From Malacoraja senta (taxonomy: Eukaryota), in NCBI GenBank assembly GCA_038087875.1, contig CM075990.1:10976001-11040000 (forward strand): a stretch of 64,000 bases of DNA, read 5' to 3'. Shown here piece by piece: positions 23,853 through 60,029 of the stretch. Positions within the stretch are counted from its first letter, which is position 1. Each line of letters begins with the position of its first letter. The notes under the pieces are model-generated. The model searched no databases. It saw only the letters and a list, made by a program, of their open reading frames with translations, and had not been told where the DNA came from. The translations under genes and the position numbers were made by a program.

Positions 23853-24078
23853 AACTATATGTGGCCTATTTTTAATCTCAATATACCATCTTTAAGTATC
23901 CCTTTCGACTGTCTCGCAACAGAGCCAAACTCAGTACGGATTGACATATCCCAAACAATTTTCTCGCTTCAGTTTTCACCTCAGTACTTCAGCTCTGGGT
24001 TGGAAATATGATGTATATGCACACAGTGATCTCATGTGAGCGTCGTGGTACACCAACATGTCTGTCTGTCACATTCTT

Positions 24079-24712
24079 TTTTTTTTCTCTCTTTTTAAAT
24101 TTTTAATTTTTAATTTTTTTTTATTTTATTAGAAGCAATGTACATACACCTTAATCATAATATGCAACATATTACATTTCTTGCACAACTTCTTTTTTTT
24201 CTTTTTTTAAACTTTAACCTATAATAGAAAAAGAGAAAAGAAAAAAGAGAAAGAAGAAAAGAGTGAGGATAGTAGTGAAGTGTAGTCCGCAGTAGTTGGC
24301 GTTAAGTGAATGATAATGGTTAAGTAGAATGCGTGCTTGAAAATGTGAAAAGAAAAGAAGAAAAAAAGGCCCCACAGAAAAGGGGGGCCTCAAGAAAAGA
24401 AAAAGAAAATAAGTAAGGAATCTAAAAAAGGTAAGGCTAAGCAAGAAGGAAAGGGAATGTGTCTAATTCCTGATGATTCACACCCATCACCTAGTTCTAA
24501 AAGAATTATTTTCCAGGGTTGTGTTGCACCATATTACACCTGTAACTAATCAATGAAAGGTGACCATATTCTTGAGAATTGCTCTTGTTTTCCTGCTAGA
24601 ACAAGTCTCATTTCCTCAAGATGTAGTATTTCCGACATATTTGTAATCCACATTTTAAACGTTGGGATAGGAGCGTCTTTCCAGAATTTAAGTATAAGTT
24701 TTTTTGCCTTTA
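24079..24712 (-). mobile_element. LINE-1 3' fragment (ORF2 C-terminus, 3' UTR, A-rich tail); 3' part of the U4-L1 chimera
   Basis: Minus strand reads AKKLILKFWKDAPIPTFKMWITNMSEILHLEEMRLVLAGKQEQFSRIWSPFID, like fish L1 ORF2 ends; A-rich tail abuts TSD CTGTCACATTCTT (24066-24078 and 24798-24810). Confidence 0.85.
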
Positions 24713-24715
24713 GCA

Positions 24716-24799
24716 GGGGTATTGGGAAAAGTTTTCAATAAGCAATAATCGCGCCTCGGGTAAACCTCATCGGCTACGATACTGCCACTGCGCAAAGCT
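24716..24799 (-). pseudogene. RNU4: U4 snRNA retrocopy, nt 1-84, 3'-truncated and fused to L1
   Basis: Minus strand AGCTTTGCGCAGTGGCAGTATCGTAGCCGATGAGGTTTACCCGAGGCGCGATTATTGCTTATTGAAAACTTTTCCCAATACCCC matches the vertebrate U4 5' domain from nt 1 (about 3 differences from human U4 as recalled); no Sm site or 3' stem-loops. Confidence 0.95.
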
Positions 24800-25214
24800 G
24801 TCACATTCTTAGGCCTACATGGACGATCCAAAATGGTGAATATTTGTGAGAGCCGTTCTCCAATGAGTGGACTCTACTTTTACATTTTTGCTGTGTTGAA
24901 AACTGGAAAAGCGAGGCGAAAATAAATTAGTGCAGTAACGGAACGAATGCAGAAAGAAGAACAGATATGTTGATAGATAAGGGGAGATAATGAGAGAGAA
25001 AGAAGTAAGAGAGGAGAGTACAGGAATAGGGAAGGGTGGGGTGAGGATGGGATGGAGACAATTATATTATATTGGATGTGGTTGGGAAGGTGGTGAGGAG
25101 ACAGTTTCAGAAAGGTACATAGATCCTGGCAGATTAGTCACATCACTCTGAATGCTGGAATATGGTCAATGGGCTGAGTAATCTATTTTGCTCATGTTAC
25201 CTACTTAGTTTAAC

Positions 25215-39389: not shown

Positions 39390-42300
39390 ATAATAAACAG
39401 AGAATAAGAGGTGGTGGGGTTCTTAAATGTGTGAGCAGAGAAACAGAGGGGTGTAAAATGCGGGCGGTAGCAAAAGGTGAAAAGTAAAAGTGGGAGGCAG
39501 ACAAATCCAGGGCAAAAATCAAAAAGGGCCACTTTTCAACATAATTGTATAAGGGGTAAGAGCGTTGTAAAAACAAGCCTGAAGGCTTTGTGTCTCAATG
39601 CAAGGAGCATTCGTAATAAGGTGGATTAGTTGAACGTGCAGATAGCTATTAATGATCATGATATAGTTGGGATCACGGAGACATGGCTCCAGGGTGACCA
39701 AGGCTGGGAGCTGAACATCCAGGGATATTCAATATTCAGGAGGGATAGAGAGAAAGGAAAAGGAGGTGGGGTAGCGTTGCTGGTTAGAGAGGAGATTAAC
39801 GCAGTGGAAAGGAAGGACATTAACTTGGAGGATGTGGAATCGGTATGGGTAGAGCTGCAAAACACTAAGGGGCAGAAAACGCTGGTGGGTGTTGTGTACA
39901 GGCCACTTAGCGGTAGTAGTGAAGTTGGGGATGGCATCAAACAGGAAATTATAAATGCGTGCAACAAAGGCACAACAGTTATAATGGGTGACTTCAATCT
40001 ACATATAGATTGGGTGAATCAAATTGGCAGGGGTGCTGAGGAAGAGGATATCTTGGAATGTATGCGGGATAGTTATCTAAACCAACATGTAGAGGAACCA
40101 ACGAGAGAGCAGGCTATTCTAGACTGGGTATTGAGTAATGAGGAAGGGTTAGTTAGCAGTCTTGTGCGTGCCCCCTTGGGCAAGAGTGACCATAATATGG
40201 TTGAGTTCTTCATTAGGATGGAGAGACATTGTTAATTCAGAAACAACGGTTCTGAACTTAAAGAAAGGTAACTTTGAGGGTATGAGACGTGAATTGGCCA
40301 AGATTGACTGGCAATAAGTTCTAAAAGGGTTGACGGTGGATATGCAATGGAAGGCATTTAAAGACTGCACGGATGAACTACAAAAATTGTTCATCCCAGT
40401 TTGGCAAAAGAATCAATCAGGGAAGGTAGTGCATCCGTGGATAACAAGGGAAATCAGGGATAGTATCAAAGCAAAGGATGATGCGTACAAATTAGCCCGA
40501 AAAAGCAGCATACCAGAGGACTGGGAGAAATTCAGAGACCAGCAGAGGAGGACAAAGGGCTCAATTAGGAAAGGGAAAATAGATTATGAAAGAAAACTGG
40601 CAGGGAACATAAAAACTGACTGCAAAAGTTTTTATAGATATGTGAAGAGGAAGAGATTAGTTAAAACAAGTGTAGGTCCCTTGCAGTCAGAAACGGGTGA
40701 ATTGATCATGGGGAACAAGGATATGGCGGACCAATTGAATAACTACTTTGGTTCCGTCTTCACTAAGGAAGACATAAATAATCTGCCAGAAATAGCAGGG
40801 GACCGCGGGTCAAAGGAGATGGAGGAACTGAGTGAAATCCAGGTTAGTCGGGAAGTGGTGTTGGGTAAATTGAATAGATTAAAGGCCGATAAATCACCAG
40901 GGCCAGATAGGCTGCATCCCAGAGTACTTAAGGAAGTAGCTCCAGAAATAGTGGATGCATTAGTGATAATTTTTCAAAACTCTTTAGATTCTGGAGTAGT
41001 TCCTGAGGATTGGAGGGTAGCAAACGTAACCCCACTTTTTAAGAAGGGAGGGAGAGAGAAAACGGGAAATTACAGACCAGTTAGTCTAACATCGGTAGTG
41101 GGGAAACTGCTAGAGCCAGTTATTAAAGATGGGATAGCAGCACATTTGGAAAGTGGTGAAATCATTGGACAAAGTCAGCATGGATTTACGAAAGGTAAAT
41201 CATGTCTGACGAATCTTATAGAATTTTTTGAGGATGTAACTAGTAGAGTGGATAGGGGAGAACCAATGGATGTGTTGCATCTGGATTTTCAGAAGGCTTT
41301 CGACAAGGTCCCACATAAGAGATTAGTATACAAATGTAAAGCACACGGTATTGGGGGTTCAGTATTGATGTGGATAGAGAACTGGCTGGCAAACAGGAAG
41401 CAAATAGTAGGAGTAAACGGGTCCTTTTCACAATGGCAGGCAGTGACTAGTGGGGTACCGCAAGGCTCAGTGCTGGGACCCCAGCTATTTACAATTTATA
41501 CTAATGATCTGCATGAGGGAATTGAAGGCAACATCTCCAAGTTTGCGGATGACACTAAGCTGGGGGGCAGTGTTAGCTGTGAGGAGGATGCTAGGAGACT
41601 GCAAGGTGACTTGGATAGGCTGGGTGAGTGGGCAAATGTTTGGCAGATGCAGTATAATGTGGATAAATGTGAGGTTATCCACTTTGGTGGCAAAAACAGG
41701 AAAGCAGACTATTATCTAAATGGTGGCCGATTAGGAAAAGGGGAGATGCAGCGAGACCTGGGTGTCATGGTACACCAGTCATTGAAAGTAGGCATGCAGG
41801 TGCAGCAGGCAGTGAAGAAAGCGAATGGTATGTTAGCTTTCATAGCAAAAGGATTTGAGTATAGGAGCAGGGAGGTTCTACTGCAGTTGTACAGGGTCTT
41901 GGTGAGACCACACCTGGAGTATTGCGTACAGTTTTGGTCTCCAAATCTGAGGAAGGACATTATAGCCATAGAGGGAGTGCAGAGAAGGCTCACCAAACTG
42001 ATTCCTGGGATGTCAGGACTTTCATATGAAGAAAGACTGGATAGACTTGGCTTATACGTGCTAGAATTTAGGAGATTGAGAGGGGATCTTTTAGAAACGT
42101 ACAAAATTCGAATGGGGTTGGACAGGCAAGATGCAGGAAGATTGTTCCCGATGTTGGGGAAGTCCAGGACAAGGGGTCACAGCTTAAGGATAAGGGGGAA
42201 ATCCTTTAAGACCGAGATGAGAAAACAGTTTTTCACACAGAGAGTGGTGAATCTCTGGAACTCTCTGCCACAGAGGGTAGTTGAGGCCAGTTCATTGGCT

Positions 42301-42458
42301 ATATTTAAGAGGGAGTTAGATGTGGCCCTTGTGGCTAAAGGGATCAGGGGGTATGGAGAGAAGGTAGGTACGGGATACTGAGTTGGATGATCAGCCATGA
42401 TCATATTGAATGGCGGTGCAGGCTCTACTCCTGCACCTATTTTCTATGTATGTATCTA
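39390..42458 (+). mobile_element. Young 5'-truncated CR1 LINE with almost complete ORF2
   Basis: APE endonuclease and RT domains, CR1 3' UTR and (ctatgt)-type tail. Confidence 0.95.
39570..42381 (+). pseudogene. CR1 ORF2 (APE endonuclease + reverse transcriptase), disrupted
   Basis: LNARS, GITETW, MGDFN, SDHN, then a 683-aa open RT segment (NYRPVSL, LDFQKAFDKV, GVPQGSVLGP, FADD); lesions: TAG ~39627, frameshift ~40225, TAA ~40315. Confidence 0.93.
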
Positions 42459-58974: not shown

Positions 58975-59283
58975 GGTGGCACGGTGGTGCAATGGTAGAG
59001 CTATTGCCTTGCAGTGGCAGAGACCCTGGTTGGATCCTGACTATGGGTGCTGTCGGTACAGAGTTTGTATGTTATCCCCGTACCCTGCGTGGGTTTTCTC
59101 CGGGAGCTCCGGCTTCCTTCCACACTCCAAAGACCTACAGGTTTGTAGGCTAATTGGCTGCGGTAAAATTGTGAATTATCCCCCGTGTGTGCAGGATAGT
59201 GTTAGTTTGTGGAGATCGCAGATCGGTGAGGTCTCGGTGGGCTGAAGGGCCTGTTTCCGCGCTGTATCTCTAAACTAAACTCA
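58975..59283 (+). mobile_element. HE1-type V-SINE, full length
   Basis: tRNA-like head, V core, gaagggcctgtttccgcgctgtatctctaaactaaact tail; ends ~42 nt before the SGPL1 acceptor. Confidence 0.9.
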
Positions 59284-59325
59284 AAAGAACATCCTGTGGC
59301 TAACTCTGATACTCTTTTTTTGCAG

Positions 59326-59491
59326 GAGACGCTGGATCTTTACAAGGAGACGGTTGAGTTGTATCTAGGATGGGGGACGAGGTATGTGAACACACGGTTC
59401 CAGGGGCTGGAGCCCTGGCAGATTGCTGCCATCACAGTCATGGCTACTCTGCTGGCAGTGTGGCTACATGGCTTCCTCTTCAAACGGGAAA
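59326..59491 (+). CDS. SGPL1: Sphingosine-1-phosphate lyase 1, internal exon (N-terminal membrane anchor)
   Basis: ctaac...ttttttgcag | ETLDLYKETVELYLGWGTRYVNTRFQGLEPWQIAAITVMATLLAVWLHGFLFKRE | gtgagt; YVN...EPWQ...W...F..ES signature; 166 nt, same as the human c.28-193 exon as recalled. Confidence 0.95.
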
Positions 59492-60029
59492 GTGAGTACG
59501 ACTGTCCTTTGTGCCAAGAACTGGTCCTAACCCAAAACATTATCTGTCCATTCTCTCGTTAGATGCTGCCTCACCTGTTGAGTTGAACATGTCCATTGCT
59601 TTACTTGTTCTGTGTCTTTACCTATGCTTTATTGGCTCTACTTGTATAAAGCCATTAAAAGTCAATCTGTTTTTATTGCTGAAGAAAATAAAAAGTAAAA
59701 CCAGTCATTTTTCTGATCCATCGATGGCTAGAAGGAGCCCATTAAAATTAAAATAGTTGAGTAGTAAAAGTGATCAATATTTGTTTCCCAATTTCTTCCA
59801 CTGCTTCCTTGAATTGTGTTCTGAAGCTAGATTGAAATATCTGTGCAGTTTTGTGGATTACTGCATCTGCCAACAATGGAAGATCCTCAGAGTACGGAAT
59901 AACTCAGCGGGTCGAGGCAGCATCTCTGGAGAATGTAGATAGATGATGCTCTGGGTCAGGACCCTTTTTTACACTCAGAGAAGGTTGGTTTCTACTATTA
60001 AATGGTAAAAAAAAATTCCCTCTCCACAG

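Follow-up and report, generated by a model that had tools for sequence, protein, structure and literature searches.

A single-copy U4 snRNA/LINE-1 chimeric retrocopy in a skate genome

The minus strand of the 64-kb stretch of skate DNA analysed here (the window) carries a real, young, single-copy chimera of U4 snRNA and LINE-1 (L1). On balance, we think it probable that this chimera is a retrocopy, likely dead on arrival, and that it likely arose from one L1 insertion during which the reverse transcriptase (RT) switched from L1 RNA to U4 RNA. Taken separately, integration of both parts in one event is very probable, and template switching as the route is moderately so. The class of chimera is itself known; what is new is the host lineage and the sense, internally cut form of the U4 part, to which a second chimera of this form, produced by a different LINE clade, can be added. 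The host is a cartilaginous fish, as had been claimed from the sequence: its CXCR2-like gene is 92% identical to that of Amblyraja radiata, and the top 12 matches are all from sharks, skates or rays.

Anatomy, source family and copy number of the locus

The locus places an snRNA directly 5' of a 5'-truncated L1 that has kept its 3' end and A tail, the arrangement of an snRNA/L1 chimeric retrocopy. One pair of target site duplications (TSDs) encloses U4 and L1, which share the same orientation, and the parts follow one another without interruption (Table 1). The two copies of the 13-mer (24810-24798 and 24078-24066) are identical at 13/13 positions, lie 732 nt apart and are its only two occurrences in the window; by simple arithmetic, a given 13-mer is expected within 1 kb about once in 70,000. 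A second duplication was looked for at the U4-L1 junction and was not found, leaving a single TSD pair at the locus. The cut site, CT/AAGA, is of the L1 endonuclease type, a relaxed match and not the ideal TT/AAAA; the same motif is scored as an L1 endonuclease motif in the table of Law and Burns (PMC13174262).

Table 1. Coordinates of the chimera in the window and of related features elsewhere in the assembly
Feature	Position	Strand	Remarks
5' TSD, 13 bp, AAGAATGTGACAG	24798..24810	-	final 2 bases (AG) are U4 nt 1-2; cut site CT/AAGA
Sense U4 snRNA nt 1-84, cut off at the base of the 3' stem-loop	24716..24799	-	without Sm site and upstream promoter region
Junction, 7 nt, TGCTAAA	24709..24715	-	5/7 as in the L1 family (TGATAAC); U4 nt 85-88 recur at bases 2-5, offset by one T
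C-terminal coding remnant of L1 ORF2, KKLILKFW...WSPFID	24534..24708	-	private early stop at 24548-24546
L1 3' UTR, with terminal AATAAA at 24130-24125	24125..24533	-	
A-rich tail, ~46 nt	24079..24124	-	
3' TSD, 13 bp, AAGAATGTGACAG	24066..24078	-	identical to the 5' TSD
Cluster of three intact U4 genes	G000:C4:80887188-80900122	-	likely source of the captured RNA
Second sense U4 chimera (L069, L007)	G000:C2812:149172 onward	+	young non-L1 LINE, of which ~1.5 kb follow U4 nt 2 to about 65-70
U6/L1 join (L142)	G000:C8:14898036 onward	+	full-length U6, 12 A, ~7 kb of near full-length L1, perfect 17-bp duplication

The original prediction had described this structure as one integration of a sense chimera, with a 13-bp TSD pair around U4 nt 1 to ~84, a few junction bases, the L1 ORF2 C-terminus, 3' UTR and A-rich tail, and with AG common to the TSD and the U4 5' end. 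Each of these elements is confirmed. The U4 part is identical at 84/84 positions to two of the four full-length host copies, both in a three-gene cluster, and at 81/84 and 80/84 positions to the other two. The proposed check with the Rfam U4 model gave 88.6 bits at 24799 against a cut-off of 46. U4 is the sole Rfam match in the window, a MIR6445 match having been rejected as chance on A/T-rich sequence. The Rfam alignment runs over the full model (1-138) and is misleading past nt 84, where the 3' half of the model is forced onto L1 sequence. The statement that U4 stops just before its 3' stem-loops is correct because the host U4 fold opens the 3' stem-loop with a first pair at nt 85; the copy thus ends at the last unpaired base.

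By sequence comparison, the LINE part belongs to a young L1-clade family, as predicted. Following U4 are 637 nt of L1; dispersed copies match this part over 594 nt with up to 97.3% identity, and at least 137 genomic copies contain one exact 28-mer of it. The clade assignment is based on longer copies and on PDB matches: the longer copies encode an ORF2 with endonuclease, RT and zinc-knuckle domains, the family RT matches human L1 ORF2p at E 8e-74 and R2 at 2e-20, and the upstream ORF (ORF1) matches human L1 ORF1p at E 2e-6. Pfam searches returned no match for the 61-aa ORF2 remnant in the chimera and none at a useful level for the family ORF1.

The U4/L1 junction is single-copy, without further amplification in the assembly. 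A query of 150 nt across the junction gave 40 scored matches, one of which spans it, namely the locus itself. The 5' 22-mer of U4, with up to 2 mismatches, occurs at six places in the 1.94-Gb assembly: the three clustered genes, one diverged full-length copy, the chimera and a second chimera described below (L069). An Rfam search adds two older copies (L070 and L071), both ending at nt 69, for at least eight U4 matches overall. Nowhere else in the assembly is a U4 5' end followed by the chimera's L1, and the three clustered genes are intact. From this census it follows that the assembly holds no U4 gene broken by the chimera's L1 and, given six U4 5' ends and a unique junction, no U4-headed SINE family; the locus is thus a single copy, as opposed to one of many dispersed copies sharing the junction. 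The chimeric U4 is likely inert, judging from its sequence, because it has neither upstream snRNA promoter elements nor an Sm site; such promoter elements lie upstream of snRNA genes (Kojima 2015, PMC4494074). Around the insertion, a Pfam search of four window ORFs for gene context gave no match. Elsewhere in the window, 39630-42381 (+) is occupied by a long LINE of the CR1 type whose RT frame is open over 687 codons, and 59230-59562 (+) is an exon-like open frame with no Pfam match, which we take to resemble an exon of sphingosine-1-phosphate lyase 1.

Junction and route of formation

Past nt 84, U4 continues CCCC GCTAT, and the chimera reads CCCC TGCTAAAGG. Among 21 L1 copies compared at the junction (three segmental duplicates of an initial 24 were left out), 20 read TGATAACGG and one reads TGCTAACGG. 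Against the L1 majority, the chimera has two differences in its first 8 nt and two more in the 162 nt that follow (P ~0.004, calculated post hoc). The GCTA of the junction equals U4 nt 85-88 shifted by one T, and its C follows U4 where 20/21 L1 copies have A. The TGCTAA form occurs in just one other L1 copy out of the 137 that share the 28-mer downstream exactly. In random joins, 4- or 5-nt matches at an offset of 0-1 are each expected ~0.3-1% of the time.

A second sense U4 chimera in the same assembly (Table 1) provides a comparison. Its LINE part has an RT domain and a TAAA-repeat tail, and we take it to be L2/Crack-like; Crack/Daphne elements are reported from the little skate (PMC13343379). 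The insertion lies within a tRNA-type SINE, with a 7-bp duplication (AATGTGC) whose unbroken site is confirmed by other copies of that SINE. At its junction, AAACT after one extra T equals U4 nt 66-70, and a shared TATTGA lies three bases upstream in the LINE. The two junctions thus both carry a short U4 match shifted by one T, which hints, with n=2, at template switching over RNA ligation. Just 5' of U4, both chimeras also read AATGTG (window 24803-24808; L007:1496-1501), a motif absent at the other dispersed U4 copies; the two LINEs belong to different clades, and the shared target motif is probably due to chance.

Three features expected of template switching can be considered at the locus: sense orientation and internal entry into the snRNA are present, and the microhomology is imperfect, seen in two cases and defined after looking. 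The full-length snRNA with a U-run end that characterizes RtcB ligation of the U6 type is absent, U4 being cut at nt 84. An snRNA inverted relative to L1, as in twin priming, is likewise absent, both parts having the same orientation. Finally, the locus lacks the layout of Keno- or Utopia-type insertions, with the snRNA promoter upstream and the remainder of the snRNA downstream of the LINE: no 3' part of U4 was found downstream of the chimera's tail, and the flanks differ from those of the host U4 genes.

The course of events that we favour can be set out as follows. The skate L1 ORF2p would nick the CT/AAGA target, and reverse transcription would be primed on the L1 poly(A) tail and proceed through ~640 nt of L1 RNA. 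Helped by the short imperfect match, the RT would then jump to U4 where this RNA is single-stranded (nt 84-88, just on the 5' side of the 3' stem-loop and the protein-covered Sm site) and would copy it to its cap end. The second strand would be joined through the shared AG. In the snRNP, the 3' end of U4 is protected by its 3' stem-loop together with the Sm ring.

Public sequencing runs offer a view of the orthologous site. Part of the region is contained in 23 runs; the sampled words are best represented in two of these, both from one organism (shares of 0.85 and 0.77), and relatives hold at most 0.22, shares below 0.2 from other runs being disregarded. Four of the 23 runs were compared on the 3' flank and tail. 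In the organism with the highest share, a contig agrees with the flank at every letter and breaks off 57 letters into the tail, as expected on entry into a repeat. In two related organisms, contigs run 1796 letters (organism A, <90% alike) and 872 letters (organism B, 90-95%) beyond the insertion point, and ~1.9 kb of the far flank is free of the repeats compared. One of the four runs (X23) gave no contig on the flank and carries no weight as evidence. The alignments of all three contigs stop at the start of the tail; this stop is not evidence, because repeats were skipped, and only the extent of the contigs beyond it was used. This extent, as distinct from the letters themselves, hints that the contigs of the related species fit an empty site.

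The original prediction held that internal truncation of U4 favours template switching. Switching is indeed the likelier route, but truncation alone would also fit a U4 RNA that was cleaved and then ligated (Moldovan 2019). Cutting at nt 84 could have yielded a U4 fragment that an RtcB-type ligase joined to a cut L1 RNA, the fusion then being retrotransposed in cis as one integration. Human cells provide a demonstrated case of such ligation for U6/L1, and the same manner of joining could apply to a small RNA whose 3' part was removed by a nuclease (both Moldovan 2019, PMC6789731); cleavage has been proposed for truncated U3 (Law and Burns, PMC13174262). The break falls exactly at the boundary between single strand and stem, a plausible nuclease site, and a blunt join with two substitutions would also account for the junction. 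We nevertheless consider a pre-joined RNA rather doubtful: ligation predicts clean joins, whereas 2/8 of the first L1-side bases are off-family and one of these follows U4; the second chimera breaks elsewhere (nt 65-70), with microhomology; and U4 has no native cyclic-phosphate end (Moldovan 2019, PMC6789731). Insertion of an L1 beside or inside an existing 3'-truncated U4 retropseudogene is unlikely. Lone 3'-truncated U4 copies do exist, both in this genome (L070 and L071, ending at nt 69) and in human, where they make up 21/32 characterised copies (Doucet 2015, PMC4476161). Against two such insertions, the single TSD pair surrounds both parts with none at the junction, both parts are young (84/84 for U4, 13/13 for the TSDs, ~97% for L1), and the contigs of related species fit an empty site. 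In addition, nt 84, unlike nt 65-69, has no purine run to prime on a T-rich nick, as the priming model of Doucet 2015 (PMC4476161) would have it.

Two further readings have far less to recommend them. The locus could be a member of a U4-headed, SINE-like family of the SINEU type, or a read-through from a U4 gene hit by a site-specific LINE; SINEU elements with U1 and U2 heads are known from crocodilians, and Keno targets U2 genes (Kojima 2015, PMC4494074). With a unique junction, six U4 5' ends of which none is followed by this L1 elsewhere, three intact clustered genes, and a different break and a different LINE in the other U4 chimera, this is very improbable and, for copies in the assembly, largely refuted. 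That the junction is an artefact of assembly is hardly credible, since a perfect TSD and tail are unlike the product of a misjoin; two public runs also contain most of the sampled words of the region, and a contig enters the tail from the flank without differences, in a run that may be the assembly's own source. Template switching during a single L1 integration is the reading we favour.

Joins of snRNAs to LINEs and SINEs elsewhere in the genome

Copies of U6, U1, U2 and U4 abut LINEs and SINEs in this assembly, and the U4/L1 locus is therefore one clear example of a recurrent process in this genome. Counts given here are lower bounds because the Rfam searches score the best 42-48 candidates only. 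A search for other U-snRNA fragments on L1 ends, suggested in the original prediction, succeeded in part: U6/L1 joins exist, with a TSD in two, and no other L1 join was seen among the U4, U1, U5 and U2 matches examined. Two of at least eight U4 matches are sense LINE chimeras. Among the best 48 U6 matches, all examined, four are followed by sense L1 (L047, L048, L055 and L142; TSD found for two), one clearly and one weakly by an end that we label Tx1-like, three by a CR1 end and four by a SINE. Among the best 42 U1 matches, all examined, sense CR1 follows four and a sense SINE start nine, with no convincing TSD. For U2, 22 of 46 matches were examined (8 gene-like copies and 16 other matches were left out), with one joined to CR1 and one to a SINE, and for U5 none of 8 matches is chimeric. 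Those snRNA-LINE neighbours that lack a TSD may be separate insertions.

The most complete U6 case (L142; Table 1) has an L1 whose ORF1 is 76% identical to that of the chimera's L1 family. It may be a chimera of U6 with a full-length L1; alternatively, the L1 may have landed within the tail of an existing U6 retrocopy. In L047, L048, L055 and L066, U6 is sense-joined to the 3' ends of two other L1 families and of the presumed Tx1-like element; L048 has a 14-bp duplication with 1 mismatch, and the other three have no clear one. L047, L048, L066, L107 and L142 match themselves in the library by construction, so that LINE identity there rests on translations. Two candidates were dropped: L042, in which a CR1 piece lies 26 nt downstream of a U6 gene, and L140, a poly(A) U6 copy within an antisense L1. 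TSD matches of 8-10 bp far downstream were treated as chance.

Several further groups were observed. Nine of the 42 U1 matches (L107, L144-L147, L149, L152, L153 and L155) consist of U1 nt 1 to ~150-157 with the 5' start of a common tRNA-type SINE within 25 nt; all are sense, with differing spacers and no TSD of 8 bp or more, and recall SINEU-1. Copies of U6, U1 and U2 directly followed by sense CR1, without a convincing TSD, make up another group (L057, L059, L060, L104, L105, L143, L148 and L197). A set of U2 copies (L184-L186 and L194-L197) starts at ~nt 38, preceded by A/T-rich runs, and the 3' flanks of most of them resemble those of U2 genes. These copies presumably represent 3' junctions left by a LINE that targets U2, like Keno or Utopia. 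Finally, many poly(A)-tailed U6, U1 and U2 retrocopies carry 12-21-bp duplications (among them L039, L040, L046, L049, L050, L052, L053, L056, L058, L100, L137, L178 and L181), a sign of relaxed L1-type trans-mobilisation in this skate.

Relation to known chimeras and biological meaning

U4/L1 chimeras are known in human (Law and Burns, PMC11838501). None of the 32 characterised human U4 copies described by Doucet 2015 (PMC4476161) is repeat-joined, and the human U4 sheet of Law and Burns (PMC13174262) has 2/253 repeat-joined copies (U4 1-143 and 1-67), both antisense. The closest relatives in form are human U3 and U5 chimeras: sense truncated U3 (~1-72) is common in human (Law and Burns, PMC13174262), and sense, 3'-truncated U5/L1 chimeras with breaks at 83, 78 and 98 are regarded as internal template switches (Doucet 2015, PMC4476161). 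Like the skate copy, these human chimeras (U3 ~1-72 and U5 1-83; Doucet 2015, Law and Burns 2026) start at nt 1, are cut internally in the sense orientation, and join a 5'-truncated L1 with its tail inside one TSD at an L1-type cut site; in the skate, the RNA is U4 and the host a skate.

The original description of such chimeras as a mammalian L1 signature does not hold, as Doucet 2015 (PMC4476161) reports U6 joined to L1, L2 and RTEX in Anolis and to L2 in platypus; no such U6 chimera is reported from Xenopus. The genome table of that paper begins at Xenopus, and its accessible text does not contain the word 'shark'. U6/L1 joins of mammals and Anolis, and U6/L2 and U6/RTEX joins of platypus and Anolis, resemble the skate locus in placing an snRNA 5' of a truncated LINE in one insertion, and U6/L1 cases flanked by 14- and 17-bp TSDs occur in the skate itself. 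In those chimeras, however, U6 is full-length and ends in a U-run with a cyclic phosphate, which fits RtcB ligation, a route demonstrated for U6 while both routes are left open for truncated RNAs (Moldovan 2019, PMC6789731); the skate RNA is a Pol II, Sm-class RNA cut internally. The SINEU elements of crocodilians also carry an snRNA-derived 5' head on a retroposon tail, and a template-switch origin has been proposed for them (Kojima 2015, PMC4494074), but they form amplified families with shared junctions and U1 or U2 heads, whereas the skate chimera is one copy. Tailless snRNA retropseudogenes likewise include U4 from nt 1 and end in a single-stranded segment (Doucet 2015, PMC4476161); they have no LINE part, whereas in the skate copy U4 is separated from the 3' TSD by 640 nt of L1 and a tail. 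In line with the original claim of novelty for chondrichthyans, no report of such a chimera in fish, shark or skate was found among the titles and abstract openings searched, a scope outside which most subscription papers and Repbase Reports fall.

The locus extends snRNA capture by LINEs from amniotes to cartilaginous fish. This implies either that the behaviour dates back at least to the origin of jawed vertebrates or that it emerges in any lineage with active LINEs. For chimeras other than those of U6, template switching and RtcB ligation can be told apart with U4 copies that are sense and internally cut, a form that the human catalogue lacks. The locus itself is most likely functionless, judging from its letters, and may serve as a presence/absence marker among skates. 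We tentatively suggest, as a possibility and not as our main reading, that several unrelated LINE clades of skates (L1, Tx1-like, CR1 and L2/Crack-like) and their SINE routinely jump onto Sm-class snRNAs, with entry into U4 confined to the open stretch from stem I to the 3' stem-loop through a short match and one unpaired T. If so, sense U4 chimeras (2 of at least 8 U4 matches, against 0/253 in human) and U1-headed SINE copies would be raw material for SINEU-like families, and elasmobranch genomes would constitute a natural record of LINE template switching.
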